A stretch of DNA of 12,749 bases from Candidatus Nanohalobium sp. (GTDB lineage: Archaea; Nanohalarchaeota; Nanosalinia; Nanosalinales; Nanosalinaceae). Where the stretch lies: the NCBI GenBank assembly GCA_042216335.1, contig JBDGTY010000029.1, positions 1-12,749 of the forward strand, written 5' to 3'. Position numbers and translations under genes: made by a program. The notes below the pieces were generated by a model that did not search any database, was not told the DNA's origin, and worked only from the letters and a program-made list of their open reading frames with translations. The stretch's first letter is position 1, and each line of letters begins with the position of its first letter. This document shows positions 1 through 12,749 of this stretch, in pieces.

Positions 1-32
1 AGACCAGAGCTATTGCTGTTTGGGCAACAGGC

Positions 33-47
33 AAAAGATACTTAAGT
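33..47 (+). promoter_or_regulatory. Candidate archaeal BRE/TATA promoter of the DUF6516-wHTH operon
   Basis: A purine-rich AAAAG run is followed by TACTTAAGT about 36-44 nt before the GTG at 83. An SD-like AGGTG lies at 73-77. Confidence 0.45.
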
Positions 48-82
48 TCTGACACTTAATACAGGAAACATCAGGTGTTGAA

Positions 83-373
83 GTGGCTGAGAAACTACTG
101 GAAAGAGAGTTCACGACCAGTGACGGCACCAAGATAGAGGTGCTCGCATGGAAAGTACCGGAAAGCGAGAAATATCCGGAAGGAATCAAGTACAAGTTTC
201 AGGCCTACAGGCCAGAAGATGGAGAAACCATCCTTCGATACGACAACCACAACAGACATGCGGGAAGCAGACACCACAAACACGTCGGAGAGGACAAAAC
301 TGAAGCAACAGAATTCGATAGCCTTCAAGAACTTTACACAAAGTTCATAGAAGAGGTGAAACGACATGAATAA
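83..373 (+). CDS. DUF6516 / TumE-like putative toxin of a toxin-antitoxin pair
   Basis: 96 aa with GTG start and upstream AGGTG. Contains the family-typical pattern WKVP..YPEGIKY..Y....ILRYDN....HHKH. Overlaps the downstream HTH gene. Confidence 0.8.
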   Translation: MAEKLLEREFTTSDGTKIEVLAWKVPESEKYPEGIKYKFQAYRPEDGETILRYDNHNRHAGSRHHKHVGEDKTEATEFDSLQELYTKFIEEVKRHE

Positions 374-797
374 AGATATAGAAGTAAAGCCAGAAGAACT
401 GGAAGGAAAAACACTGATAGTCACACATATGAGCCAGGACAAATTCAACACTGAGACAGTGGAAGACCTTGGTAGACTGGAGGAAGGGGAAGAGGTTCCA
501 TCAAAAAAGGTGTTTGAGGATCCAGGAGAACTGGCCAAGCTTTTCACGGAGAAGAGAAAGGAACTTGTTAAAGAGGTCAAGGAGAATCAACCAGGAAGCA
601 TAAGTCAGCTGGCGGAAAACCTGGAAAGAGGGAAGAGCGAGGTCTACAGCGACCTCAAGCTACTGGAAAAACACGGAATAGTATTCTTCGAAGAGGATGG
701 ACAGGCCAAAAAGCCGCGGATACCGTATGACGAGATAAAAGTAGAGTTCAATCTTCTCGGAGAGAACTCAAAAATAGGAGACGGAATCAAGGCCTAG
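366..797 (+). CDS. HVO_A0114-like winged-HTH DNA-binding protein, putative antitoxin/regulator
   Basis: 143 aa. LFTEKRKELV...PGSISQLAENLERGKSEVYSDLKLLEKHGIV...KKPRIPYDEI matches the wHTH family that accompanies DUF6516. Strong SD GAGGTGA at 353-359, 8-nt overlap with the upstream gene. Confidence 0.8.
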   Translation: MNKDIEVKPEELEGKTLIVTHMSQDKFNTETVEDLGRLEEGEEVPSKKVFEDPGELAKLFTEKRKELVKEVKENQPGSISQLAENLERGKSEVYSDLKLLEKHGIVFFEEDGQAKKPRIPYDEIKVEFNLLGENSKIGDGIKA

Positions 798-879
798 GCA
801 TGAAAAAAGATTATATGCCGGAATACGGCTACTAGCTTTGAATCAAACTCTACAGCATAAACCACAGAATGAAAGGAAG

Positions 880-1194
880 CTATTGAAGTTCCATGACTGC
901 CCCGGCTACGTCTTCAGCGCTTTTCAGGGCTTCTCTGGCTTCTTCTTCGCTGCAGTCCGTTTTTTCCTGCACCAGTTCGATGTCTTCCTGGTCGGGGTCT
1001 GTATCCTTTTCTTCTTCTGTGTAGTTGCCCTGTAGGTTGAATAGTTCCTGTCCCTGTGCGTCGATCTTGGAGAGATCCGGGTTGTTGAATACCAGTTTTT
1101 TGTCGCCTACGTGGACTTCGACCTTGTCTGCGTCGATTTCTTCCATGTCCATGCCCATCTGCTTCATCATCTGCTGCATGTTTCCGCCGAACAT
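880..1194 (-). CDS. nac: Archaeal nascent polypeptide-associated complex (NAC) protein
   Basis: 104 aa from the ATG at 1194. MQQMMKQMGMDMEEIDA.KVEV..GDKKLVFNNPDLSKIDAQGQ is the NAC domain. EDIELVQEKTDCSEEEAREAL..AEDVAGAVMEL is the UBA-like C-terminus. The longer 1353 start overlaps the divergent gene and is rejected. Confidence 0.93.
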   Translation of the reverse strand: MFGGNMQQMMKQMGMDMEEIDADKVEVHVGDKKLVFNNPDLSKIDAQGQELFNLQGNYTEEEKDTDPDQEDIELVQEKTDCSEEEAREALKSAEDVAGAVMELQ

Positions 1195-1216
1195 AGAAAC
1201 TTGTTGTGCGGCATTC

Positions 1217-1224
1217 TTTTTATG
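1217..1224. promoter_or_regulatory. Candidate shared TATA box in the 58-bp divergent nac / tctA-like intergenic region
   Basis: TTTTTATG is the only TATA-like run in the gap. It lies 23-30 nt from the nac ATG (1194) and 29-36 nt from the permease ATG (1253). Confidence 0.4.
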
Positions 1225-1252
1225 ACTGAACAAACCCAAGATTGAAGCAAAA

Positions 1253-2416
1253 ATGCTGGACCTCATCAGCCTGGCTCTTATCGGAGTACTCGCAGGAGCT
1301 TTCACGGGAATAGTACCGGGGATACATCCGAACACAGTCATCTTCACCTCCATACCGTTCTACCTTTCCACATCGATGGCCTTCATGAGCTATGCAGCAT
1401 TCATCTCGGGTCTTTCCGTCTCCCATACCTTCCACGACTTCCTTCCCAGTATCTACATGCAGGCGCCTGACGCCAACACCGCACTATCCACGATGCCAGG
1501 AGCAGAAAAAGCTGCAAACGGGGAGGGACCTGAAGCATTCCACTCGACGCTTATCGGCGGGATAGTATCGATAGTTGCTCTGATACTGGCGCTGCCGGTT
1601 CTGACACTTTTCCTGGAAGATTTCTACACTTTTATCGAGCCTTTCATGGCGTATATCGTCGCGTTCTTCCTCTTCTTCCTGATATTCAGGAATAAGTTCA
1701 GGCCGGCGATTATTACAGCGGTTCTGGCCGGCGCACTCGGCATGATCTCGTTGAACAGCTCGCTCGGCGGCCAGTTCATATTGATGCCTGTCTTCGGAGG
1801 ACTATTCGCTGTTCCAGCCGTTATCTCCTCACTGGAGAAGGACTTCGAACTTCCCCAGCAGGACTTCGAAGCAGGTTTTTCAGGCGGCAGGGGCGGCCTG
1901 GCTGGCCTGCTCTCAGGCTTGATCGCAGGGACTGTTCCCGGTGTCGGGGCCGCAGGCTCCACGACATTTCTGTCGCCTTTGATGGATGACGGCTCGGAGT
2001 TCCTGGCAGGTATGGGAGGAGTTAATACCACGGATATCGTGGTTTCCTTACTGGCGCTACTTTTGATCGGGAAGGCACGATCCGGAGCCTCAGTCGCACT
2101 TCAGAGCCTCTCTACACCGGTCCGACATGAGATCTTCCTTTTGATCGGGCTTTCGGTTTTCTGTGCGGGCATCTCGGCGTTGCTGGCCCTGCGGACGGAG
2201 AGGTTTTTCCTGAAGGTTATAGAGTTAGTGAACTTCCGGAAAGCGGGCGTAGCTGTACTTTCCATAGTCTGTGTGCTTTCCTTCGTCCTGTCTGGCTGGT
2301 TCGGAGTCCTGACTCTGGCGACGGCTTCCTTCATCGGTTTTTACAGCCTGGAGAATTCGTGTCGTGCAGCCTGTATGGCGGTGCTTCTGGTGCCTTCCAT
2401 CGCCTTCTTCATGTAG
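1253..2416 (+). CDS. Tripartite tricarboxylate transporter TctA-family permease (archaeal type)
   Basis: 387 aa polytopic membrane protein. N-terminal GAFTGIVPGIHPN, SHTFHDFLPSIY..AP and LSTMPG motifs, GLFAVP, and the internal repeat GLIAGTVPGVG are typical of archaeal TctA (COG1784-like). Confidence 0.88.
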   Translation: MLDLISLALIGVLAGAFTGIVPGIHPNTVIFTSIPFYLSTSMAFMSYAAFISGLSVSHTFHDFLPSIYMQAPDANTALSTMPGAEKAANGEGPEAFHSTLIGGIVSIVALILALPVLTLFLEDFYTFIEPFMAYIVAFFLFFLIFRNKFRPAIITAVLAGALGMISLNSSLGGQFILMPVFGGLFAVPAVISSLEKDFELPQQDFEAGFSGGRGGLAGLLSGLIAGTVPGVGAAGSTTFLSPLMDDGSEFLAGMGGVNTTDIVVSLLALLLIGKARSGASVALQSLSTPVRHEIFLLIGLSVFCAGISALLALRTERFFLKVIELVNFRKAGVAVLSIVCVLSFVLSGWFGVLTLATASFIGFYSLENSCRAACMAVLLVPSIAFFM

Positions 2417-2417
2417 T

Positions 2418-2452
2418 AAAAGGTTTTTTATCGGTTCAGACCTGACTCAGGT
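2418..2452 (+). promoter_or_regulatory. BRE/TATA (AAAAGG-TTTTTTA) plus 13-bp palindrome ACCTGA-C-TCAGGT upstream of the AI-2E gene
   Basis: TATA at 2424-2430 is 25-31 nt before the ATG at 2455 (leaderless geometry). A perfect palindrome at 2440-2452 lies between the TATA and the start. Confidence 0.55.
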
Positions 2453-2454
2453 AT

Positions 2455-3456
2455 ATGAACAGTCAGCGCGGCTTCCTGCTCATCCTCGTTACATCGCTGC
2501 TTTTCGTCGCCGGGCTGATGCTGAAGCCATTCCTGGGGTATATCCTGGGTGCACTGCTTCTCGCGTTCATCCTGATGCCTCTACAGGACCGGCTTTCTAA
2601 CCTTATCGGAGACAAGCTTTCGGCTCTGACACTGATAGTTTTAACTTTTGTAGCAGTATCCGTGCCTTTTGCCCTGATATTCGGGGCTGTAGCGAACGAT
2701 GCACAGGACGTTATCGGAGAGGTGAACCAGACGCAGCTATTTGATATCCAGAAGGCCGAACAGATAATAATGGAGTACACAGGGCAGCAGGTGAACCTTG
2801 AGCAGGAGATAAGAGAGGTTCTCAACCAGTTCGTGTCTACCACGCTCGGAGGAGTATCCGAATTCCTCAACGTCCTCACAGGCATAGCCATAGGCTTCTC
2901 AGTCATGCTCTTCCTGCTCTACTACCTACTGAAAGATGGCAAGGAGTTCACAGGATATTTAAAGGGCATAATACCGCTTCCGGAAGATATAGTGAATAGA
3001 CTCCATCGGAAGACCTACCAGACTACCTGGGCTGTCATCAAGGGTCATATACTTGTCGCTGTGATCCAGGGGCTTATAGCCGGCGTCGGACTCTGGTTCA
3101 CCGGAGTACCCAACTTCGCTTTCTGGACTTTCGTCATGATTTTGCTGGCTTTCATACCGATAATCGGAGCCTTCATGGTCTGGGGACCGGCATCGATCTA
3201 CCTCCTGGCCATCAACAGGCCTATAGCAGCCATCGTACTGGCCGTCTACGGCAGCATAGTGGTTGGATTAACGGACAACTTCCTCAGGCCGCTGCTGGTC
3301 GACAGGAGCGGCGACCTGCACCCAGCAGTGATACTTATCGGAGTTATCGGAGGCGTCTACGTCTTCGGGGCCGCAGGACTCTTCATAGGGCCCGTAGTAT
3401 TCGGAGTACTGAAAGCAGTGCTGGAAGTCTTCAAGAGCAACTACCAGGATCTCTGA
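2455..3456 (+). CDS. AI-2E family (PerM/TqsA-like) membrane transporter
   Basis: 333 aa. Hydrophobic N-terminal helices, FLLYYLLKDG, VAVIQG, FIPIIGAFMVWGP, DNFLRPLL and LHPAVILIGVIGGVYVFGAAGLFIGP are characteristic of AI-2E. Confidence 0.93.
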   Translation: MNSQRGFLLILVTSLLFVAGLMLKPFLGYILGALLLAFILMPLQDRLSNLIGDKLSALTLIVLTFVAVSVPFALIFGAVANDAQDVIGEVNQTQLFDIQKAEQIIMEYTGQQVNLEQEIREVLNQFVSTTLGGVSEFLNVLTGIAIGFSVMLFLLYYLLKDGKEFTGYLKGIIPLPEDIVNRLHRKTYQTTWAVIKGHILVAVIQGLIAGVGLWFTGVPNFAFWTFVMILLAFIPIIGAFMVWGPASIYLLAINRPIAAIVLAVYGSIVVGLTDNFLRPLLVDRSGDLHPAVILIGVIGGVYVFGAAGLFIGPVVFGVLKAVLEVFKSNYQDL

Positions 3457-3497
3457 AACCTGCCCCTTTTTGAAAGAAAGAAGAAACAAGGTTTTCC

Positions 3498-4325
3498 ATG
3501 CCGGAGATACGTGAATCAGTTATCTTAGCAGCGCTCGCTGTCATATTGATTTCCATCCCGGCAGCTTCACAGAACGTTGAGATAACAGAAGAGGACAGAT
3601 ACAGCGGAAAGATAGACTCCAGGTTCTCCGACATGTTCAAAGTAGACTTCAGGCCCGGAAAGATAGTTATGGAGTTGATCGACAGCGAAGCCCGACTCCA
3701 GGTAAACAAAAGCTACCGGAAAAACACCTACTTGCTTCGGACACCGGAAGGATACGTGAAAAAGGTCGAAACCAGTAACTCGACGATCAAGATTGTGCAG
3801 ACGCCTTACGGCAGGTTTGTCTCAGGCTTCAGGAACGGAGAGAACATCTCGAAGTTTGAATCCAGCAGGGAAGAAGCCAGTGACTCAGTAAAGGCCGAGG
3901 CCAGAAAGATGAAGAAGGAGCTGATGAAAAGGTTCGAGGAAAGGCTTGCCGAGACCAGGGACAGGAAGCAAATCGTGATGGATCGGATCCTGCCGGATAT
4001 CGAGTTAGGTGTAGAGGCAGATGAAGACACCGCCGAACACTTCGTACTGGAGAACACAGGAAACCAGACCCTGGATCTGTCAGGCTGGAAGATCGCGGCC
4101 AGAGACTCGAATGGAGAAGTCGGCGATACTCTCAGGCTCGAAAGAGAGATCGGTCCGGGCGAAAAAGTGGTCTTTTACTCGAATAAACGCAAGGACGTGA
4201 AGGATGTAGTCGACAGCATACCGGAAGATGCGATCTTTGATTCAGGAGTCAATATATTCAACGATGGCGGCGCTGTCAAGCTGTACAACGGGAAGGACAG
4301 GCTTATCGACTCCTACAGTTACTAG
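3498..4325 (+). CDS. Secreted/surface protein with C-terminal lamin tail domain (LTD)
   Basis: 275 aa with an N-terminal signal peptide (VILAALAVILISIPAAS). A central charged helix/coiled coil is followed by EHFVLENTGNQTLDLSGWKI...IGPGEKVV...IFNDGGAVKLYNGKDRLIDSYSY, the LTD pattern. Confidence 0.82.
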   Translation: MPEIRESVILAALAVILISIPAASQNVEITEEDRYSGKIDSRFSDMFKVDFRPGKIVMELIDSEARLQVNKSYRKNTYLLRTPEGYVKKVETSNSTIKIVQTPYGRFVSGFRNGENISKFESSREEASDSVKAEARKMKKELMKRFEERLAETRDRKQIVMDRILPDIELGVEADEDTAEHFVLENTGNQTLDLSGWKIAARDSNGEVGDTLRLEREIGPGEKVVFYSNKRKDVKDVVDSIPEDAIFDSGVNIFNDGGAVKLYNGKDRLIDSYSY

Positions 4326-4603
4326 AGTTTTTCTACGTCCCCTTTAACCCTGTACTTCTCTCCGGTCAGAAGCTTCCTCATCTTCATCTCCTCTCCTTCC
4401 GCAACGATAACCAGGTTCTCCAGGTACGGTTTGATAGGCGTGGCAAGTTCGGACTTGACGTTGACGAGGATAGTCGAGACTATGAAAAGGTAGAGTATGA
4501 CAGAGAGGCTTGTCGAGCTGAATCCCATGGCCTGGACGATCGTGTAGGCTGCTCCTGCGATGACTGCTCCGTAGACAGCGCCCTCGATCGCATCCTGTTT
4601 CAT
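4322..4603 (-). CDS. Small hypothetical membrane protein (two predicted TM helices)
   Basis: 93 aa with two hydrophobic segments in the N-terminal half. Its start overlaps the cupin stop (ATGA, 4600-4603), indicating translational coupling. Confidence 0.7.
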   Translation of the reverse strand: MKQDAIEGAVYGAVIAGAAYTIVQAMGFSSTSLSVILYLFIVSTILVNVKSELATPIKPYLENLVIVAEGEEMKMRKLLTGEKYRVKGDVEKL

Positions 4604-4968
4604 CCTTCTCTCCTGTCCTCGTATGGATCCTCTACACGGGTTATATCATCCGGTTTGTACGGGAAGGATATCTCCAGTACGGTGGCGACATCGCCCTGGA
4701 TGTTCTGGAGCTGGTGCTTCTCTCCCGTCCTTATTATCTTGGCTTCGCCCTTCTCAAGCTTCTGCATGCCGCTCTCCGTCCTGAGAACCACAGTTCCCTC
4801 CTGGAGGTAGAGGATGTCCTGCTGGTATTCATGATAACAGTAGGACGTCATCTCGTCGGCGTTGATGACGAGTCGGCGCATCCCCAGCATTCCGGTTTTG
4901 TCGCCGACATCGACCTGGGTCGCCAGAACCTGCTCCTCGTATCCCCACGGCTTGTCAATCTTGCTCAT
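4600..4968 (-). CDS. Cupin-domain protein, mannose-6-phosphate isomerase (type II PMI C-terminal domain)-like
   Basis: 122 aa from the ATG at 4968. Motifs KPWGYE, TSYCYH....DILYLQEG, GEKHQLQN and VLEIS....DDITRVEDPY.R match the cupin/PMI-II C-terminal pattern. Confidence 0.8.
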   Translation of the reverse strand: MSKIDKPWGYEEQVLATQVDVGDKTGMLGMRRLVINADEMTSYCYHEYQQDILYLQEGTVVLRTESGMQKLEKGEAKIIRTGEKHQLQNIQGDVATVLEISFPYKPDDITRVEDPYEDRREG

Positions 4969-5001
4969 CACACCAGTATTTCTTGGCAACGGTTTTAGGC
5001 T

Positions 5002-5937
5002 TTAGGTGTAGAACTCCACGGTCTTCTCCAGTCCTTCCTCAAATGAGTATTCGGGCTCCCAGCCAAGCACCTCCCTCGTCCTGGAGATATCGGCCCGGTG
5101 CTCCATAACATAGTTGTCACGCGGGTTCTCGATCCTCTCAGCCTCAATATCAGTGCCGAGAGCATTGTTCAACTCTTCGACCACCTGGTTGAAGGTCTGA
5201 GGATTACCTGTGCCGACATTGAAAACCTCGCCGTTTGCTTCTTCGATCCTCTGGGCCGCTGCGATGTTGGCCTCTGCCACATCCTCAACGTAAATCAGGT
5301 CGCGTTCTTGGTCGCCTTCACCCCAGATAACCGGCTGCTCTCCATCCTGCATCTTCCACAGGAACTGGGTGAGTACGTTCGCGTACTTGCCCTTCGCCTT
5401 CTCGTGAGGTCCGAAGACGGAGAAGAACCTGAGGCCGGTGAACTGGACATCGGTCTGGACAGAATAAGTCTTCGCGTAGAGCTCACGGGACATCTTCGAC
5501 GCCGTGTAAAGGTTCATCGGATACTCTCCCGAATCCACCCTGTGCGGCGGCTCCACACTGCCATACATAGAGCTCGTGGACGCATAGACAACCTTCTCCA
5601 CGCCTTCATCCTCCGCAGCCTCAGCAACATTGATGAAACCTTCAATATTCACCCTAGCTCCTTCAGCCGCATCATCCTTGTGCATTGGAGAAGAACTCCT
5701 CGCTGCGAGATGGAAAACCGTATCACATCCCTCGATAGCCTCCTCGACGGTTTCGACGTCAAGTACCGACCCATCGATAAACTCCACCTCGTCCCTAACC
5801 CTGTCAAGGTTGGATTCGTCGCCAAGGTACTGAGAATCAAGTACGACGACCTCGACATCCTTTTCCACAATTTTTTCCACGATATTCGAGCCGATGAACC
5901 CGGCTCCACCAGTCACAAGCGCTTTATCCATTTCCAT
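5002..5937 (-). CDS. NAD-dependent nucleotide-sugar epimerase/dehydratase (extended SDR)
   Basis: 311 aa with Rossmann motif TGGAGFIG, FHLAA, ASTSSMYG, catalytic YTASK (YxxxK), LRFFSVFGP, RDLIYVEDVA and FNVGTG. Confidence 0.96.
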   Translation of the reverse strand: MEMDKALVTGGAGFIGSNIVEKIVEKDVEVVVLDSQYLGDESNLDRVRDEVEFIDGSVLDVETVEEAIEGCDTVFHLAARSSSPMHKDDAAEGARVNIEGFINVAEAAEDEGVEKVVYASTSSMYGSVEPPHRVDSGEYPMNLYTASKMSRELYAKTYSVQTDVQFTGLRFFSVFGPHEKAKGKYANVLTQFLWKMQDGEQPVIWGEGDQERDLIYVEDVAEANIAAAQRIEEANGEVFNVGTGNPQTFNQVVEELNNALGTDIEAERIENPRDNYVMEHRADISRTREVLGWEPEYSFEEGLEKTVEFYT

Positions 5938-5939
5938 AA

Positions 5940-6800
5940 TTATCGATCTTTCATAGAGTTTTTTAGATGTGTTTTGTCAGGCAGTGCGGACATCGCCCCT
6001 TTCTCCTGTATTGATAGAGAGGCTGCGTGAACAGCTTTTCTCAGAGCTTCCTCCTTTCCCTGCTCTCTGAATGTGAGGTAGGCTCCCGTCAGTGCGTCAC
6101 CTGCTCCGGTGGTGTCTACTGGTTCTACTGGAGGCGAGGATGCCTTGAAGGAATCTTCCACAGTTCTAACCAGTGCTCCTTCCTCTCCCCTGCTTTCAAC
6201 TACCTCATCTACCTTCTGAAGGATTTTATCGGTGCCACCAAGCCGGTTCATCTCTTCTTCTGCAGCAAAAAGGATATCCGTTCTCTTAATCACGTTCTCT
6301 AGAGTTTCGATGTATTCCTCATCCACGAGTTCTTTCCTCAGATTGGGATCGAAGCTGACCTTGCCTTCAAAGTTTTCCAAAGTCTGCAGTATGTTCTCCG
6401 CAGTTTCCTGATTCGTTAGAGGCAACGAGCCCAAATGAACTATATCTGATTCTGTTTCTATATCGTGTAGTATCTTCTCGTCAGCTCCTCTGTAAAAGCT
6501 GAATTCGGGTTTAGACTGTTTGTCAAGCGAGACAAAAGCCAGCGTAGTTTTTTCTTCGAGCTGTTCTACATTTATTTTAACATTTTCATTTCTCATTCTT
6601 TCAATGAGAAATTTTCCAAAAGCATCATTCCCTACCGACGCCGTTATGGATGTTTGAGCGCCGAGCCTTGAAGCTGCTACAGCTACGTTGGCTGGTGCTC
6701 CTCCAGCCCTCTTCACGAATTCTTCTGTATTTTTTAAGCCTCCTGTCTGGTTACCTATCATATCTACAAGGAGTTCGCCTACGCAGTTGATTCGTACGAT
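5940..6800 (-). CDS. PfkB/ribokinase-family carbohydrate kinase (fructokinase-like); start codon uncertain
   Basis: GGAPANVAVAASRLG, VGNDAFG, FDPNLR and DTTGAGD are PfkB signatures. The first ATG is at 6761, but the in-frame upstream codons read IVRINCVGELLVD, the conserved first strand of PfkB kinases. The gene therefore probably starts near 6797-6800. Confidence 0.9.
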   Translation of the reverse strand: MVRINCVGELLVDMIGNQTGGLKNTEEFVKRAGGAPANVAVAASRLGAQTSITASVGNDAFGKFLIERMRNENVKINVEQLEEKTTLAFVSLDKQSKPEFSFYRGADEKILHDIETESDIVHLGSLPLTNQETAENILQTLENFEGKVSFDPNLRKELVDEEYIETLENVIKRTDILFAAEEEMNRLGGTDKILQKVDEVVESRGEEGALVRTVEDSFKASSPPVEPVDTTGAGDALTGAYLTFREQGKEEALRKAVHAASLSIQEKGAMSALPDKTHLKNSMKDR

Positions 6801-7714
6801 TGTCTCACCCTTTCGTATGCGGAGAGTGCTTCGAGCGTTGCTGCGTTCCAGTGCCTTCCTGGCTCGACCTCCGCTAGCTCATAGTTTTTGTCGCCAAGGA
6901 ACATTTCCGCCCTCTTTTCTGCGCTTTCTATGCTGCTAGTCGAGTAGAGCTCATCAAATATAAGGTGGAGTACACTGACTGTTTCATAGTTACTGTCTTC
7001 CGAGGCTATCACTGATGCGTATGGTTCTGCACCTTCCTCTATGGCTATAGCCTGGCCTCCTGCGCGGACCGAGTCGTCCATGAAGTCTGCGTCCGTCGCT
7101 GAGTCGCCGACAGCTATAGGCGCGAATTGGTCGAGATTCGACATTGAGTCGGAGATGCGGCCAGGTTTCTCGGATCTTCCACAGTAATCTGCCTCATAAC
7201 CTTCCCCATTCTGCTTTATGTCTGCGCCCGTGACACCTATATCGTAGTCTTCTAGGAGGTCTGTTGCGGCTGCGTTGACTCCAGCTGTGACTATCTCAAT
7301 TTCACTGTCACGCATATAGATGTCTTCGTGCTCGAGAAGGTCGCTGAAGCCGCCTCTGATATGTTCTGTGTTCTGCGATTCAGTTAGGACACGTTCTATT
7401 TCATCTAGGTCTGCATCTGATTCTTCGACTATTATGTTCGCTTTTTCAGAGCCTCGGGATATATCCTCCCGTCCGTTTCTCCGTTCATCGACTTTGGTGG
7501 AGAAGTCATCCAGATTCTCTACTCCAATTATATGGCTTTCATCGTGTTGCGCTGCCAGTTGGCCCACGTCACCATCGTAGACTGTTCCATCGAAATCCAC
7601 GAGGTGAGCAACATCATTACCGTATCGCTGATGAGATGGCATTTCCTCCAGCCCTATCTTTAGTTCCGGCACTTCCACATCGGAGATGTTGTCTGCCTCA
7701 CTCGATTTGGCCAT
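6779..7714 (-). CDS. HAD-superfamily phosphatase/phosphotransferase (C1-cap type), substrate unknown
   Basis: 311 aa, very acidic. Motif I LVDFDGT, motif II IVTAG, motif III Lys in GRSEKP, motif IV AVGDSATD. Confidence 0.8.
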   Translation of the reverse strand: MAKSSEADNISDVEVPELKIGLEEMPSHQRYGNDVAHLVDFDGTVYDGDVGQLAAQHDESHIIGVENLDDFSTKVDERRNGREDISRGSEKANIIVEESDADLDEIERVLTESQNTEHIRGGFSDLLEHEDIYMRDSEIEIVTAGVNAAATDLLEDYDIGVTGADIKQNGEGYEADYCGRSEKPGRISDSMSNLDQFAPIAVGDSATDADFMDDSVRAGGQAIAIEEGAEPYASVIASEDSNYETVSVLHLIFDELYSTSSIESAEKRAEMFLGDKNYELAEVEPGRHWNAATLEALSAYERVRQSYESTA

Positions 7715-7738
7715 GGTATTACGATGTATTACTTTTCA

Positions 7739-7746
7739 CTTTTAAA
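7739..7746 (-). promoter_or_regulatory. TATA box of the HAD-kinase-epimerase-cupin run
   Basis: The minus strand reads TTTAAAAG 25-32 nt upstream of the ATG at 7714, consistent with a leaderless archaeal transcript. Confidence 0.55.
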
Positions 7747-7791
7747 GGTTCTTAGTTTCTGCATAATCTCTGAATATTTCAGGAAAAGGCC

Positions 7792-8337
7792 CTATTTGTA
7801 TTTACTCAGAACAGTGTCGAACATGTTGGATTCCTCGAACTGCGCCACTATCCTCTCGCCTCCAGCCTTCAATTCAAAGCTTTCAGCGTACCGCATTATA
7901 GGTTGAACTCCGAACAAAGGCGTGTCAACTTCTCTAGGTATAATATTCACGATACTCGTGAACTCGAATCCGTTCTCCATCTGTAGGCCCACAGGATGAA
8001 GATAGGACTGTATATCTTCTCCGTTTGCCAGAGTTGAGGTTACCCGGATAGATTTCTTAGAGTGTTTCTTCCAGGTGTTGTGTAGAAAACTGTAGGGAGC
8101 CCTCGACCCGTGACTGTGCCACTGGTTTCTCAACTCTGGGTTCTCCTCTGATCTAAAGTCTATCCCCAGTTCTTTGGCAACAACCTTTGAAACAGTCGTC
8201 CACGAAGCACCCGTATCCAGCAGCAGGGAACGGTGTGAATCACCGCTGCCGGTGAAGAAACGCGCATCCTTCAGGTAATAACCATCTTTGTTCTGGCGTT
8301 CGCCATCGATCAATCTATCGAAAACTACCTTGCTCAT
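7792..8337 (-). CDS. Retropepsin-like (clan AA) aspartic protease, single domain
   Basis: Catalytic motif LLLDTGASWTTVS (Asp codon 8215-8217), helix VAKELGI, flap-like TLANGE, and C-terminal PLFG. ATG at 8337, alternative TTG at 8340. Confidence 0.85.
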   Translation of the reverse strand: MSKVVFDRLIDGERQNKDGYYLKDARFFTGSGDSHRSLLLDTGASWTTVSKVVAKELGIDFRSEENPELRNQWHSHGSRAPYSFLHNTWKKHSKKSIRVTSTLANGEDIQSYLHPVGLQMENGFEFTSIVNIIPREVDTPLFGVQPIMRYAESFELKAGGERIVAQFEESNMFDTVLSKYK

Positions 8338-8347
8338 CAACAGCTCA

Positions 8348-8578
8348 CTATATCAACCGGGCTTTGCTGTCATCAGGCACCTTAGTCAGAAGAAAATTCT
8401 CGGAATCAGACCTACTCTCCGCCTTTTGATACGCCTGCATCTCGCTACTCTCTATCGCTATGATTTCTCCTCTACTAATAGCTATCCAGTTCCCTTTAGC
8501 CTCTTCAGGGATATCCCCTTCCTCTAAAAATTCGGAGTTCTCCCTGTCAAAGTTTGAGACATCTTCTTCAAGTGTCAT
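8348..8578 (-). CDS. DUF5678-like small protein
   Basis: 76 aa. KGNWIAISRGEIIA...MQAYQKA.......FLLTKVP matches the DUF5678 pattern as I recall it. It sits directly upstream of the aspartic protease. Confidence 0.75.
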   Translation of the reverse strand: MTLEEDVSNFDRENSEFLEEGDIPEEAKGNWIAISRGEIIAIESSEMQAYQKAESRSDSENFLLTKVPDDSKARLI

Positions 8579-8745
8579 GGCAGACTCAGATACAAATATA
8601 GTTCACCGTGATTTGCCCTTACCGAATCAATGCTCCTCAAGCGATTTAAAAATTGCAGATAGAGGTCACTACTTCGCCACTCTGAAGCGATAATCGCCTT
8701 CCACCACAAAGCCAACCAAGTTCAAAGAGGAAAATATCCACAGTC

Positions 8746-8751
8746 TTTATA
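8746..8751 (+). promoter_or_regulatory. TATA box of the membrane protein gene
   Basis: TTTATA lies 25-30 nt upstream of the ATG at 8776. Confidence 0.55.
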
Positions 8752-8775
8752 GCAGAAAGTCTCGAAAACTCTCCT

Positions 8776-9195
8776 ATGCTGAACAAAAACTATCTTCAGG
8801 CCCTTCTCGCCGGCGAGTCCCGTGCCTACGGATTCACCATCGCTTTCTGGGGTTCGGGCGCACTGCTGATCAAGGCTAACGGGCTTCCCGTCATAGGCGA
8901 GGCCTTGCTGTACGGCCTGGGCGCCGTCGTAGGTTTCGGCGTACTGGCGGCCGCTGCGTTCGGCGAAGCCAGCAGAGAGGTAGAGTACGACAACCCAAGT
9001 TATCTGGTCCTGGGAATGGTTCATTACCTGGCCGCGCTCGTACCTATGCTGGTGGCGCACGCGATCACGACTGCGTCCGTTCCTGCGACAGCCGACTTCT
9101 TCCTATCCGGTTTCGCGGTATCGACGACCTACAACCTGCTGGCAGTGCTTGAAGAGGACGTGACAGAGGTCATCGGCAGGTTCACCCCTGTTTAA
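8776..9195 (+). CDS. Hypothetical integral membrane protein (about four TM helices)
   Basis: 139 aa, hydrophobic throughout, with ESRAYGFTIAFWGSGALL at the N-terminus. It has a correctly placed TATA box and overlaps the next gene convergently by 14 nt. Confidence 0.8.
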   Translation: MLNKNYLQALLAGESRAYGFTIAFWGSGALLIKANGLPVIGEALLYGLGAVVGFGVLAAAAFGEASREVEYDNPSYLVLGMVHYLAALVPMLVAHAITTASVPATADFFLSGFAVSTTYNLLAVLEEDVTEVIGRFTPV

Positions 9196-9928
9196 AATCC
9201 TTCCACTTACCGCCGTAGATGTAGCCCGTCAGCTTTCCCTCTTCCGCCAGTTTCTCGAACTCCTCCTCGATACTGTGCCGATTCAATCTTTCGAATATCT
9301 CCGGCTCGAAGATGTAAGTGCCTGCGTTGATGAGTCTGGAAGGTTCTTCACCTGGCTCGGGCTTCTCCTCGAACCCGAGTATCTTCCTGCCCTTCAGCCG
9401 TGCAACCCCGTACTCCGAAGGGTTTTCAACAGTCGTCAAAGCCATCGTGGCAATCCTGTCCTCCTCTCTGTGGACCTCCAGCATTTCATCGATGTCGACG
9501 CCGCTGATGACGTGGCCGTTCACCACCAGAAAGCTGCTTTCTATCCTGTTCTCGATCTTCTCCAGTGCGCGGGCCGTTCCCTCCGGCTCATCGGAAACGT
9601 ACTCCAGAGCCATCTCACCGTGCCGTGAGCCGAAATGCGACTCGATCTCCTCACGGTTAGGGCCGGTTAGAAGTATGGCACGGGAGACATACTCGGAAAG
9701 GTCGTCAAGGACATGGCCGAGCACCGGTTTACCACTCCACGTGTTCAGCGCCTTGGCCTCGGGATCACCACAGAAAACGACAGCAGTACTTATCTTTCTC
9801 TCACTGAGATACGATTCGATTATATCTTCGACCATCCGCGAGCGGTTGACTCCCTTCTCCTCCGCCTCTTCATCCACCTTTTCCACGAGTTCTTCGTTCA
9901 GCGTGAGAGAAATCCTTTTCTTCGCCAT
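9182..9928 (-). CDS. Ribbon-helix-helix (CopG/MetJ-like) domain fused to a degenerate sugar-phosphate nucleotidyltransferase domain
   Basis: Residues 1-43 (KRISLTLNEELVEKVDEEAEEKGVNRSRMVEDII) form an RHH. Residues about 46-248 carry NTP_transferase landmarks GKPVL, GTARAL, FLVVNG, NPSEYGVA, FEEKP, INAGTYIFEP and WKD. Confidence 0.88.
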   Translation of the reverse strand: MAKKRISLTLNEELVEKVDEEAEEKGVNRSRMVEDIIESYLSERKISTAVVFCGDPEAKALNTWSGKPVLGHVLDDLSEYVSRAILLTGPNREEIESHFGSRHGEMALEYVSDEPEGTARALEKIENRIESSFLVVNGHVISGVDIDEMLEVHREEDRIATMALTTVENPSEYGVARLKGRKILGFEEKPEPGEEPSRLINAGTYIFEPEIFERLNRHSIEEEFEKLAEEGKLTGYIYGGKWKDFKQG

Positions 9929-9961
9929 GCCTGATTAAAGCTGGGTTATCAGGCTTAATTA
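9929..9961 (-). promoter_or_regulatory. Inverted repeat GCCTGAT-N12-ATCAGGC (candidate operator) plus TATA-like TAATTAA
   Basis: Perfect 7-bp arms at 9929-9935 and 9948-9954 abut the start codon (9928) on one side and the AT-rich box (9955-9961) on the other. Confidence 0.6.
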
Positions 9962-10060
9962 TTCTTCCGGAATACTGGCCGAACAACTGTCATTGGGAAA
10001 AATCCAGTTTTTTGCCATAAAGAACTTAAAATTAGTCAAATAGTATTGAAGTGAGGCAAT

Positions 10061-10300
10061 ATGTCAAAGACTGCTGTGGATTCACATGGCCGACTCTATC
10101 TTCCGAAAGAGATCAGGGAGAGACACGGGAAGGAGTTCAGAATCGTGGAGTTCGAAGGAGAGGTAAGGCTTATCCCGGTAGCTGAGAACCCGCTGGAGGA
10201 TTTGAGGCAGCGAACAAAGAAGTTGAGGGAAAGCGATAAATCCGTTGAACAGTTAAAGCAGGAAGCGCGGGAAGAACTGGAAGAACTCGCAGGTGAATGA
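10061..10300 (+). CDS. vapB: AbrB/MazE/SpoVT-family antitoxin (VapB-like)
   Basis: 79 aa. VDSHGRLYLPKEIRERHG.EFRIVEFEGEVRLIPV is the swapped-hairpin AbrB pattern. ATGA overlap with the PIN gene; TATA-like CTTAAAA at 10025-10031. Confidence 0.88.
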   Translation: MSKTAVDSHGRLYLPKEIRERHGKEFRIVEFEGEVRLIPVAENPLEDLRQRTKKLRESDKSVEQLKQEAREELEELAGE

Positions 10301-10677
10301 AGATCGGAAAGTACGCCGACACAGACTTCATACTGGCACTTATAAAGGAAGAAGACTGGTTGAAGGAGAACGCTGAAGATATTCTGGCGGAAGAGGACAG
10401 GATAGAGACTTCATACCTCAGCATACTTGAATCGATAATGGTTCTGAAGAGATCAGGAATAGAGGACACAGTAGAGATAGTAAAGGACATCCTCGATATC
10501 GCAGAGTTAATACACGTCGATGAAGAGACAGTGCTAAAGGCCGCGATATTTATGGAGGAGAAAGATGCAAACCCATTCGACGCCTTCCACGCAGCCCTAG
10601 CGCAGGAAAGAACCATAATAAGCTCCGACTCCATATACGACGAGATAGGGAAAGAAAAATCAGACCTCAGAGAATAA
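10297..10677 (+). CDS. vapC: PIN-domain ribonuclease toxin (VapC-like)
   Basis: 126 aa with the acidic PIN residues in YADTDF, SILE, FDAFHAA and ISSDSIYD. Coupled to the AbrB gene. Confidence 0.9.
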   Translation: MKIGKYADTDFILALIKEEDWLKENAEDILAEEDRIETSYLSILESIMVLKRSGIEDTVEIVKDILDIAELIHVDEETVLKAAIFMEEKDANPFDAFHAALAQERTIISSDSIYDEIGKEKSDLRE

Positions 10678-10685
10678 CAAAAATC

Positions 10686-11360
10686 TTACGAAGAACTCTT
10701 ACCCACTTCCACATCCAAAAAGTATTTCTCACCGTTCCTCTCGAAGTAGGCGGTTTCATGGTCGGAAAACTGCAGGGCACGGAGCCTGTCCAGGAACTCT
10801 CCGAAAGTTCCCTTCTCTTCCAAGTCCAACTCACATAGCTCGTCTAAATCATCGCGGTAATGGACAGTCCCTCTCTCAAGGTTCTGCTCACGGCCCTCAA
10901 CACCCTCCTTGATTTTCCCCCAGTTATCTTTGAACTGGTGGAACTGCTCCTCCTGGAGTCGATCATAAAGTGTTTCAGCAGTGTCGTCCGGCCTGACCTC
11001 GACCTCCCTCCTGTCGATAATCGGGCCTTCATCGATCTCCTCCGACATGTAGTGGATGGAGACACCTGCCGGCGTATCCTCGACGATCGGCCAGATGTAC
11101 GGGTGAGCACCACGATTATACGGCAGGAAAGACGGATGCAGGTTGACTACACCCTTCTCCGGAACATCGATTATCTCTTCCGGAACCTTGTGCTCGAAGC
11201 CGGAGGCTATGACGATCTCCGGTTCCAGATCCCTGATGAGCGAGAGCTGGCTCTTCTCGGTTAGAAGCGCGAGGACTTCTACATCTTCTTGCTGGTTCAG
11301 CCAGTCGTATACTTTTTCCCCTGCAGGGTTTGTTCCGAGGAAGATCGCGCGGATAGACAT
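10686..11360 (-). CDS. Formyltransferase, most similar to NDP-4-amino-sugar N-formyltransferases (VioF/Rv3404c-like)
   Basis: 224 aa. NLHPSFLPYNRG, GVSIHYM and IDEGPII supply the Asn/His/Asp catalytic residues. The short C-terminus LCELDLEEKGTFGEFLDRLRAL...AYF resembles sugar N-formyltransferases rather than the Fmt tRNA-binding domain. Confidence 0.85.
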   Translation of the reverse strand: MSIRAIFLGTNPAGEKVYDWLNQQEDVEVLALLTEKSQLSLIRDLEPEIVIASGFEHKVPEEIIDVPEKGVVNLHPSFLPYNRGAHPYIWPIVEDTPAGVSIHYMSEEIDEGPIIDRREVEVRPDDTAETLYDRLQEEQFHQFKDNWGKIKEGVEGREQNLERGTVHYRDDLDELCELDLEEKGTFGEFLDRLRALQFSDHETAYFERNGEKYFLDVEVGKSSS

Positions 11361-11439
11361 AAGTAGTACTCAGAATGTAAAGTGAAAAGAATTTTTGTAG
11401 GTTGAAGAAGGAAAAACTTTTCGAGCAAAGGTTGACACA

Positions 11440-11565
11440 ATGAAGGACATAGATATAGGCGAGGAAACATACCGGAAGCTGGAGAAGCTGAAAGAAGAGA
11501 AAGACGTCGAGTCGATTGACAAGCTGCTCAACAGGATAGCAAACCAGAAATTGAACAACCCTTAG
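11440..11565 (+). CDS. Short RHH-type antitoxin-like protein (VapB-like), possibly truncated; not in the ORF track
   Basis: Manual translation gives MKDIDIGEETYRKLEKLKEEKDVESIDKLLNRIANQKLNNP* (41 aa). This fits the archaeal antitoxin pattern M-K-x-I-x-I-x-E-E-T-Y-x-K-L-x-x-L-K...S-x-D-x-L-L. Confidence 0.6.
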   Translation: MKDIDIGEETYRKLEKLKEEKDVESIDKLLNRIANQKLNNP

Positions 11566-11573
11566 TGAATTAA

Positions 11574-11717
11574 ATGAGGAAGGAACTGGAAAACTCTCTC
11601 GGCAGGGAGGTAGATGTGCTAATTTACAACTCCGTACACCCCAACATCAGGGAAAGAGTTGAAGAGGAAGCAGTGGAAATACGAGGAAAATATTCAAGAG
11701 ATAAGAAAAGAATGTGA
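11574..11717 (+). pseudogene. C-terminal fragment of a minimal nucleotidyltransferase (MNT of MNT-HEPN systems); not in the ORF track
   Basis: Manual translation gives MRKELENSLGREVDVLIYNSVHPNIRERVEEEAVEIRGKYSRDKKRM*. ELE..LGR.VD and P.IRER...EAV.I are the MNT C-terminal half. The N-terminal GS...DxD motif and a HEPN partner are absent. Confidence 0.7.
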
Positions 11718-11751
11718 TAAGAACTAAGAAAGCTTCAAAGAGCCTAAAACC

Positions 11752-12666
11752 TCACATATAGCCTAATTTTCGAAGCTTATCCATAATCTCCTTGTCGTCC
11801 TTGTTCTGAGCTCTTCCTGCTCTTTCTTTGGTGTTTTCCACGTCCTGTAGCCAGGCTGGTTCTTCCGCGGACTTGTCTGTGGATACTTCTGACCCGAGGC
11901 TTCTGAATCCTGCCCAGTACTTCGGAGAGATCGGTACATCCTCCTTTGTAAGGCCTTCAGGAAGATCGTCTTCATCTTCAGGGTACTCCTTGATGTCTAT
12001 TCCTGTGATGTCGGGCACCATGTGGAACCATGATACATCCCATACGTCTCGCTCGTTGAGCTGCAGGATCGGGTGGACTCTGATGTGGTCTGGATCGCTT
12101 CTTGGAGAGTAGAAGTCCTCGTCACCTCTGGACTCGTGCTCGTCCCACCTTACTCCGTTGATGACTGCCTTGATTCCGTGGTTCTCCAGCAGCTCGTTCA
12201 TAGGAACGGTTTTCAGCAGGTGGTTTCCGGCCTCTGTGTCCATCAGCCATGGTACTTCTTCGTAGTCACCTACTTCTTCCGCAGCCTTCTGGTTGCGTTC
12301 GTTGAGTTCTGCGACAGGTACCTTGTCACCCGGGTTGTCTGCCTTCTCGATCAGGTCTTCGTTCTTCGCCACCATCACGTCGAATCCCCAGTCGTCGGCC
12401 AGTCTCTCGACGTAGTCTTCTAGTTCGTCGAAGTGCTGTCCGTGGTCCACGAACATGAAGTCCGGCTTGTCGAAGCCGTGTTCTTCGCAGACTCTTTTGA
12501 CGAGCCATGCTGTCAGTGTGGAGTCCTTTCCTCCGGTGAATCCGATTACTACGTTGTCGGTGTCGTATTCTTCCAGAGCTCTTTTGACGACTTCTTCTCC
12601 TGCTTTTATCTTGGCTTTTATCGGTGCGTTCTCGATCTCGTCCCGTGTTACAGGTGCTTCTGGCAT
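11752..12666 (-). CDS. PAPS-reductase-family PP-loop protein, haloarchaeal CysD-like (sulfate adenylyltransferase subunit 2-like)
   Basis: 304 aa from the ATG at 12666. PP-loop FTGGKDS, GVRWDEHESR, RVHPILQLNERDVW, GFRSLG, ERAGRAQ and C-terminal LGYM. The CysH catalytic ECG(L/I)H tail is absent. Confidence 0.85.
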   Translation of the reverse strand: MPEAPVTRDEIENAPIKAKIKAGEEVVKRALEEYDTDNVVIGFTGGKDSTLTAWLVKRVCEEHGFDKPDFMFVDHGQHFDELEDYVERLADDWGFDVMVAKNEDLIEKADNPGDKVPVAELNERNQKAAEEVGDYEEVPWLMDTEAGNHLLKTVPMNELLENHGIKAVINGVRWDEHESRGDEDFYSPRSDPDHIRVHPILQLNERDVWDVSWFHMVPDITGIDIKEYPEDEDDLPEGLTKEDVPISPKYWAGFRSLGSEVSTDKSAEEPAWLQDVENTKERAGRAQNKDDKEIMDKLRKLGYM

Positions 12667-12685
12667 AGAAAATTCACTTTTGAAT

Positions 12686-12716
12686 ATGCATAAGTTATGC
12701 ATGATGGTTAATAAAG
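12686..12716 (-). promoter_or_regulatory. Perfect palindrome ATGCATAA-G-TTATGCAT with upstream TATA-like TTTATTAA
   Basis: 8-bp arms at 12686-12693 and 12695-12702 lie between the minus-strand AT box (12708-12715) and the ATG at 12666. Confidence 0.55.
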
Positions 12717-12749
12717 GCAGGTCTGTTCTAGTCCTGAAGAATTTCTTCA

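Follow-up and report, generated by a model that had tools for sequence, protein, structure and literature searches.

Attaching an enzyme-derived sensor to a transcription factor is a known principle, for which NikR-type architectures, PutA and BirA serve as examples, and the sensors of the NrtR and ROK repressors are enzyme-derived as well. Here we analyse a candidate regulator of this kind in a 12,749-nt stretch of Candidatus Nanohalobium sp. (assembly GCA_042216335.1, contig JBDGTY010000029.1, positions 1 to 12,749; hereafter the window), where the minus-strand gene P0001 (9182..9928) is an intact open reading frame (ORF) whose 248-amino-acid (aa) translation joins an N-terminal ribbon-helix-helix (RHH) DNA-binding domain to an NTP_transferase-like domain (RHH-NTP hereafter, for the gene and its protein). 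The RHH shares its strand-helix-helix layout with CopG, the repressor of pMV158, and the operator that we propose for P0001 is made up of repeated short subsites, like those of the Arc/MetJ superfamily, where the met-boxes of MetJ are the example; CopG, Arc and MetJ are, however, small stand-alone proteins, whereas the RHH of P0001 precedes a 200-residue enzyme-derived domain. NikR (1q5v) shares the order of parts, with an N-terminal RHH and a C-terminal ligand sensor controlling operator binding, but its sensor is ACT-like and binds nickel, whereas that of P0001 has a nucleotidyltransferase fold of GT-A type and presumably binds a sugar nucleotide or sugar phosphate.

Other described systems resemble P0001 in function or in fold. 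PutA (which has an N-terminal RHH), BirA and NadR each combine a DNA-binding domain with an enzyme from the pathway under their control and are the best analogues for catalytically intact relatives of P0001 in DPANN archaea; all three are catalytically active, whereas in the nanohaloarchaeal form both the catalytic loop and the catalytic Asp are missing. TrmB and Tgr have the same physiological role as the one predicted for P0001, sugar-dependent control of gluconeogenesis, which they exert through the TGM motif, a palindrome of 17 bp close to the TATA box, but TrmB has a winged helix and a sugar-binding domain of another fold, and TrmB-family genes track the motif reported here less well. As for the fold, the part of PMC11228364 drawn on here describes GMPPA as a paralogue without catalytic activity that regulates GMPPB and binds GDP-mannose, and this precedent shows that a nucleotidyltransferase fold can be a non-catalytic sensor of nucleoside diphosphate (NDP)-sugars; GMPPA and GalF are non-catalytic folds sensing NDP-sugar in the way that we propose for P0001. 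We found no description of an RHH-nucleotidyltransferase fusion in the literature searched, supplementary files not covered; the search terms for one do not occur in PMC5882156, and the part of PMC6393860 drawn on here mentions RHH proteins as antitoxins only. A preliminary description of this DNA, made from its letters, had stated that no characterised regulator with this architecture was known, which agrees with that search, but the architecture itself proved to be common in DPANN and other archaea. Judged from its sequence, P0001 is rather likely to be a ligand-sensing one-component repressor of gluconeogenesis and sugar-nucleotide genes, and we set out below what argues for this reading and what argues for others.

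The preliminary description had read P0001 as an RHH followed by an NTP_transferase fold, and Pfam recovers both, the former as RHH_1 (PF01402) at residues 5-41 (E 3.2e-7; 30.5 bits versus a cut-off of 20.5) and the latter at residues 61-244; the motif strings that it had quoted are also all found where it placed them in the 248-aa translation. The RHH domain, taken as residues 1-45 (9794..9928, minus strand), is of CopG type, since the closest solved relative of residues 1-50 is CopG (2cpg/1b01, E 1.2e-4); an RHH antitoxin ranks below it, and NikR is fourth (E 6.8e-3). R5, S7 and T9 of P0001 are the alignment partners of CopG R4, T6 and T8, which we take to be the base-contacting residues, and we likewise assume the roles of the N-terminal strand and of the NRS turn from the CopG-DNA structure. 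A word-indexed protein search with P0001 yielded 271 proteins, and the conservation counts given here out of 120 refer to the best 120 of these 271, query included, whose named sources are Nanohaloarchaea throughout. Among the matches listed, the query apart, more than 100 orthologues of 243-253 aa show 58-75% identity. The RHH residues are kept almost without exception, with K3 in 119 of the 120, R5 in 118, S7 in 119, T9 in all 120, N28 in 119, and R29 and S30 in all 120.

The remainder of the protein forms an NTP_transferase-like (GT-A type) domain, the putative sensor, at residues 61-244 (9197..9748, minus strand), which Pfam aligns with positions 25-228 of the 245 in profile PF00483 (E 7.1e-22) and which a genome search returned with the same range. 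An AlphaFold2 model built from a 111-sequence input has a mean predicted local distance difference test (pLDDT) score of 94.5, and its best Foldseek matches are GDP-mannose pyrophosphorylases (GMPPB 7d72_E, E 9.5e-18; query-normalised template modelling score of 0.72 against GMPPB), RmlA, GalU and kindred enzymes, while human GMPPB is also the best solved relative by sequence (E 2.4e-13). Every enzyme model of NCBIfam stays under its cut-off, the best being Arch_glmU with 98.6 bits versus 292.1. Pfam reported no hexapeptide or beta-helix family, and the protein stops at residue 248, right after the W.D motif, which bears out the earlier statement that a C-terminal beta-helix is lacking. Neither the ACT-like metal-binding domain NikR_C, in whose place the C-terminal domain is NTP_transferase, nor the winged-helix TrmB domain PF01978 was reported by Pfam for P0001. 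A homodimer prediction scored 0.37 versus a mark of 0.42, which gives no verdict and counts neither way. No holder was listed among RNA runs, and this too carries no weight.

What sets this domain apart from the enzymes is the state of its catalytic elements. Work on RmlA and GlmU has established what the GxGTR Arg (NTP phosphates), the NGD Asp (Mg2+) and the EKP Lys do, and in these enzymes the Arg and Asp are essential. In P0001 the signature loop is shortened and degenerate, reading STAVVFCGDPEAKALNTWSGKPVLGH at residues 47-72 (9713..9790, minus strand; AVVFCGDPEAKAL at residues 49-61) in place of GGxGTRLxPLTxxxPKPLxPxxGKP, as profile and alignments agree: positions 1-24 of the NTP_transferase profile, the site of the GxGTR loop, are unmatched by Pfam, and alignment with canonical relatives places the deletion at about 10 residues. 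The segment from G54 to G66 is 13 residues long in 120/120 matches and GxG[TS]R occurs in 0/120, so the loop deletion that the preliminary description had inferred is a property of the whole set. The metal-binding motif NGD is replaced by NGHV at residues 137-140 (9509..9520, minus strand; His139 codon 9512-9514), with His139 opposite the Asp of 'NSD' in human GMPPB, and the change from Asp to His that had been noted recurs in 110 of the 120, the others having N (8) or D (2).

By contrast with the loop and the Asp, the pocket motifs are kept: YGV lies at residues 173-175, FEEKP at 186-190, INAGTY at 200-205 and WKD at 242-244. The EKP motif (residues 188-190; 9359..9367, minus strand) has K189 in 117/120 (R in 3) and P190 in 120/120, and similar counts hold for G117 (120), T118 (114), Y173 (119), G174 (120), V175 (119), N201, A202 and G203 (120 each), Y205 (120) and W242 (119). 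Columns identical in at least 95% of the sequences number 75 of 248 and include ones from the RHH as well as from the pocket motifs. These counts show strong purifying selection on the motifs that contact the base and the sugar phosphate, and the selective loss of catalytic elements with retention of sugar-binding ones, which the preliminary description had proposed for this one protein, appears as a conserved pattern over the best 120 matches. The genome also encodes a canonical paralogue of 322 aa on contig C13 (GGHATRLWP..AKP and GGDN), which means that the enzyme function is covered elsewhere. Since the nucleotide-base and sugar-phosphate pocket is kept, the domain may sense an NDP-sugar or hexose-1-phosphate, and because the loop for the beta- and gamma-phosphates of a nucleoside triphosphate (NTP) is gone while the base and sugar-phosphate motifs remain, such a compound seems a likelier effector than an NTP.

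Counting 9-mers over all non-coding DNA of the orthologous loci, we found that TCGTAATAT-like words stand out and resolve to GTAATACATCGTAATAC, two 7-nt half-sites spaced 10 nt centre to centre. As GTAATAC and its reverse complement differ at the centre alone, we write the element GTAWTAC-N3-GTAWTAC. In the window this candidate operator, located by k-mer enumeration at 7716..7732 (minus strand), lies 1 nt 5' of the ATG of a HAD-like gene and 7 nt 3' of a TATA box, TTTAAAA (7740..7746, minus strand; read from the sequence), at the head of a putative target operon (4600..7714, minus strand), and it is the sole match in the window at up to two mismatches, with 0.04 expected. The genome of the window (1.02 Mb) holds three exact and four one-mismatch sites, whereas 10 genomes simulated with a first-order Markov model gave no exact match, no one-mismatch match and 0-4 two-mismatch matches each. 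Six of the seven genomic sites are intergenic and stand -2 to 12 nt from start codons (one at 39 nt). The genes that follow are PGK, a class I fructose-1,6-bisphosphate (FBP) aldolase with a class 1 FBPase behind it, type II GAPDH, the canonical nucleotidyltransferase on C13, an 82-aa ORF and the HAD/PfkB/epimerase/cupin operon of the window.

The element is distributed across the phylum: exact copies are present in 54 of 70 genomes and those of its reversed control in 0 of 70, and at up to one mismatch there are 268 element sites versus 17 control sites. We sampled the regulon elsewhere through 21 exact sites in 20 loci of nine other genomes. Eleven of these sites stand directly 5' of PGK (3), GAPDH (3), FBP aldolase/phosphatase FBPase_3 (2), PEPCK (2) or PPDK_N/PEP-synthase (1), and the other ten precede NUDIX genes (2), a GH15-like gene (1) or unknown or uncertain ORFs (7); tblastn with the target proteins of this genome named PGK and one GAPDH only, and the other neighbours were identified through Pfam. 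One exact-site region, in genome G031, has a differing context and is uninformative. The preliminary description had expected surface-glycan genes as such to be the targets; the sites point instead to gluconeogenesis as the likely centre (PGK, GAPDH, FBA/FBPase, PEPCK, PPDK), accompanied by sugar-nucleotide genes. Another palindrome of 17 nt, GAAAATC-N3-GATTTTC, came out of the first genome-wide palindrome search and was rejected as an operator, being absent from the intergenic parts of the window and, as we read it, unrelated to the RHH-NTP gene. It has nine exact copies (e.g., outside the window, C19:37991-38007, C29:2219-2235, C34:15920-15936 and C59:1703-1719), and because these lie mostly 3-30 nt past stop codons and the variants (GAAGATC..GATCTTC, GAAACTC..GAGTTTC and GAAATTC..GAATTTC) stay complementary, they look like terminator hairpins.

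In the mechanism that we propose, the N-terminal RHH of P0001 would bind DNA as a dimer, and the C-terminal fold would no longer catalyse, because its GxGTR phosphate-binding loop is deleted and its metal-binding Asp is now His. Liganded P0001 would occupy the 17-bp operator as two dimers, on palindromic half-sites 10 bp apart and on one face of the DNA. As the operator follows the TATA box and precedes the start codon, covering the transcription start, and in some promoters overlaps the TATA box itself, occupancy should repress initiation. The predicted regulon would comprise PGK, GAPDH and FBA/FBPase, elsewhere also FBP aldolase/phosphatase, PEPCK and PPDK/PEP synthase, together with the canonical sugar-1-phosphate nucleotidyltransferase and the sugar kinase/epimerase operon adjoining the regulator. 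The logic would be end-product feedback, in which plentiful activated sugar represses both gluconeogenesis and sugar activation, though we are guessing at both the ligand and the direction of control.

The architecture of P0001 is not confined to Nanohaloarchaea. When 1.84 billion representatives were searched exhaustively with HMMER, there were 9330 matches at E <= 1e-3, from which 150 listed rows and the query were taken for alignment and tree, leaving 145 rows after those with fewer than 140 domain residues were dropped. An N-terminal RHH is present in 87 of the 145. We assigned the loops of these 87 fusions to classes by eye, a regular expression having misclassified several rows, and found about 8 canonical (e.g. 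GGKGTRLRPLTYELPKP), 34 full-length but degenerate and 45 short; the Asp column has D in 77, H in 6, N in 3 and T in 1. A search with a canonical-loop member, P0141, listed among its matches 120 proteins of about 265-299 aa, 98 of which satisfy both the RHH and the loop regular expressions, and the remaining 22, inspected by eye, all have an N-terminal extension of about 45 residues and mostly GGKGTR-type loops. Their sources include Woesearchaeota, Nanoarchaeota, Altiarchaeota, Aenigmatarchaeota, Parvarchaeota, Diapherotrites and Ca. Atabeyarchaeum (one Asgard record), so that the fusion is widespread in DPANN archaea, Altiarchaeota and one Asgard record, and the P0141-type proteins with canonical motifs are candidate bifunctional enzyme-repressors. 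The source annotation of such fusions reads nucleotidyltransferase and nothing more. This wide family with intact members, and the 17-nt element at the operon adjoining the gene, are what the present analysis adds to the preliminary description, which had looked to homologues across Nanohaloarchaeota and DPANN for conservation of the same features: the fusion and the loop deletion are conserved in Nanohaloarchaeota, with the Asp-to-His change in 110/120, but many DPANN fusions keep the canonical motifs.

Because so many fusions keep those motifs, the nanohaloarchaeal form is best seen as a derived, loop-deleted variant. A FastTree phylogeny of the 145 rows places P0001 in a starred clade of 6 short-loop rows whose sisters are short-loop and Asp-keeping; its backbone does not resolve (support 15), so we use only the query's clade and its short-loop sisters and leave fusions and loop losses uncounted. 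A short loop together with a kept NGD is also found in the deep nanohaloarchaeal families f4 and f5, which, like the sister rows, suggest that the loop was lost before Asp changed to His. An evolutionary series can accordingly be sketched that would start from catalytically intact RHH-fused enzyme-repressors (Woesearchaeota, Altiarchaeota, Diapherotrites and one Asgard record), pass through the loop-deleted, Asp-keeping deep nanohaloarchaeal families and end in the P0001 family, with loop and Asp both lost. That the P0001 family is the end point of this series and a master gluconeogenesis feedback repressor throughout the Nanohaloarchaeota, derived from a dead NDP-sugar pyrophosphorylase and gauging how much activated sugar is present, is a broader proposal that we put forward only tentatively.

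We infer that the RHH-NTP protein binds the 17-nt element from the way in which sequence and gene accompany each other. A site with at most one mismatch lies at the first promoter downstream of the RHH-NTP gene in 12 of 16 nanohaloarchaeal loci, and in 8 of the 14 gene-bearing genomes of families f4 and f5, as well as in locus L021, a site stands 6-10 nt 5' of the start codon of RHH-NTP, overlapping the gene's TATA box, as is usual for RHH repressors that control their own synthesis. Five genomes have no site at up to one mismatch, four of which have no RHH-NTP gene either; as the genomes are related and hence not independent, we attach no test statistic to these counts. Several observations weigh against this assignment. 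The closed genome G047, of the same genus (973 kb, 99% complete), keeps five one-mismatch sites, one at the FBA promoter, while neither a protein nor an alignment query found an RHH-NTP gene there (the PfkB kinase is missing too); G031 (93% complete) has six sites and no RHH-NTP gene was found in it. In all, 13 genomes with sites have no detected full-length gene, although they are mostly 68-81% complete and two of them carry gene fragments, that of G046 at a contig end. The promoter of the RHH-NTP gene in the window has no element at up to two mismatches, and in family f1 the own-promoter sites are weak or absent. Moreover, an element that is self-complementary could be read just as well by a winged-helix dimer, and the genome encodes such a candidate, a TrmB-family protein of 289 aa (C16:15071-15937, minus strand) that is present in 69 of 70 phylum genomes at 51-86% identity and is the main alternative reader. 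P0001 could then be an RHH sensor with a dead enzyme domain that controls itself or a few neighbours through a different site, the element belonging to this or another regulator; TrmB and Tgr do control glycolysis and gluconeogenesis in other archaea, and a wholly palindromic pattern suits a helix-turn-helix dimer. We hold this to be unlikely, although it deserves to be taken seriously, since sites lie in the RHH-NTP gene's own promoter in eight genomes of two families and in L021, and beside the gene in most loci, and all five site-less genomes have the TrmB-like gene. A second TrmB-like gene is found in only 12 of 70 genomes, too sporadic for a reader, and no 17-nt site lies near the TrmB-like gene in the genome of the window.

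The remaining alternatives concern what P0001 itself does. It might be a bifunctional enzyme-repressor that, like PutA, BirA and NadR, still makes its product, an NDP-sugar, by means of an unusual active site, as many relatives with the same fusion keep canonical GGxGTR..PK and NGD motifs and the gene sits in a sugar-nucleotide cluster with a kinase, an epimerase and a formyltransferase. The kept EKP and W.D motifs speak for this as well, as does K59, which is opposite the catalytic Lys of the PK motif in GMPPB and is K in 69, R in 27 and neither in 24 of the 120; with K or R in 96/120, some phosphate contact may remain, which is also a point against a purely sensory domain. Yet all 120 lack about 10 residues, among them the Gly-rich loop with its Arg, the Asp is His or Asn in 118/120, the enzyme models stay far under their cut-offs and a canonical paralogue is present, and we therefore regard continued catalysis as improbable. 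More improbable still is that P0001 does not bind DNA and regulates a catalytic paralogue by protein contact, in the manner of GMPPA and GalF, with the RHH as a dimerisation module. In its favour, GMPPB and GMPPA are the top matches by sequence and by fold, GMPPA being a non-catalytic regulator in the part of its source drawn on above, and the genome has paralogous transferases. Dimerisation alone, however, would have no need of R5, S7 and T9 and the NRS turn, which are kept in 118-120 of the 120, and a conserved DNA element tracks the RHH-NTP gene. GMPPA contacts and acts on GMPPB through its C-terminal beta-helix domain, whereas P0001 has no beta-helix, has a DNA-binding domain and has its signature loop deleted. 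To simple decay of a nucleotidyltransferase gene without a function of its own we give practically no credence. Within the genus the gene is missing from one genome and split into two frames in another (G048, residues 1-108 and 105-246 in overlapping frames), so that it seems dispensable or in the course of being lost there unless the split in G048 is an assembly error. In the window, however, the frame is intact, and the orthologues share an identical loop length and the many near-identical columns already noted; decay, for which the preliminary description had looked to intact close homologues and relaxed selection, is contradicted by this pattern, as a short loop shared by all 120 best matches (0/120 with GxG[TS]R) and near-invariant motifs are not those of a decaying gene. 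A repressor that senses a sugar compound through a dead enzyme domain remains our preferred reading of P0001.

The surroundings of the gene are conserved as an island in 16 nanohaloarchaeal loci. Its usual order begins with a PAPS-reductase-like gene, a sugar N-formyltransferase and often a divergent epimerase, then the RHH-NTP gene, followed by a convergent membrane-protein gene and, on the same strand, by HAD-like, PfkB kinase, epimerase and cupin genes, with glycosylation genes after them. In the window the run from the HAD-like to the cupin gene is the putative target operon, delimited by Pfam, by intergenic gaps of 2-17 nt and by a gene order conserved across loci, and it consists of an HAD-IB/phosphoserine-phosphatase-like gene (6779-7714; Pfam and protein-atlas matches), a PfkB sugar kinase gene (5940-6761), an NAD-dependent epimerase/dehydratase gene (5002-5937) and a cupin gene (4600-4989), all on the minus strand and the last three assigned by Pfam. 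The sugar N-formyltransferase (10686-11360, minus strand), in which Pfam finds Formyl_trans_N and the dimerisation domain N_formyltrans_C, suggests that the island makes a formylated amino sugar. Between it and the regulator lies a VapBC-like pair on the plus strand (10061-10677; Pfam), made up of a MazE/AbrB-like gene of 79 aa (a weak Pfam match) and a PIN-domain gene of 126 aa that overlap by 4 nt. As the formyltransferase directly precedes the regulator in locus L017, the pair in the window looks inserted.

The promoter of the RHH-NTP gene in the window has a TATA-like box, TAATTAA, 26 nt 5' of the ATG (9955..9961, minus strand; read from the sequence), and a (T)AATTAAA box is found at the same distance from the ATG in orthologous loci. 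Promoter alignment and k-mer counts over the upstream regions of RHH-NTP genes revealed just this TATA box and weak GTAAcAC-like half-sites. Two further features were seen here. The first 25 nt of the gene (9904-9928) are repeated with 76% identity 90 nt upstream, at 9994-10018, leaving a remnant start ATGGCAAAAAAC, and a perfect 7-nt inverted repeat, GCCTGAT-N12-ATCAGGC (9929-9935 and 9948-9954), fills the gap between the TATA box and the ATG. On its sequence, this promoter seems to be rearranged in the window. Besides the canonical paralogue on C13, two more nucleotidyltransferase paralogues lie close together on contig C50 (L002 1462-2562 and L003 1477-2763), with a membrane-protein gene between them. 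Both have beta-helix tails; in the 366-aa one the signature loop is degenerate, PAAKKKEDMFPFS, with NGD kept, and in the 428-aa one it is near-canonical, so the two may be a GMPPA/GMPPB-like regulatory pair.

To our knowledge, almost nothing is known about the regulation of central carbon metabolism in the tiny-genome, host-dependent DPANN archaea. For these organisms the present analysis offers a concrete circuit with a candidate regulator, a 17-bp operator at defined positions and a putative regulon of PGK, GAPDH, FBA/FBPase, PEPCK, PPDK and sugar-nucleotide genes, the parts of which are conserved across a phylum that includes a cultivable member. It also means that many archaeal genes labelled 'nucleotidyltransferase' probably encode proteins that bind DNA as well. 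If the proposed function holds, the family would be a natural example of an enzyme turned ligand sensor, with the intermediates surviving in related lineages, in which an enzyme that once moonlighted became purely a sensor and assumed the role that TrmB-type regulators have in other archaea.

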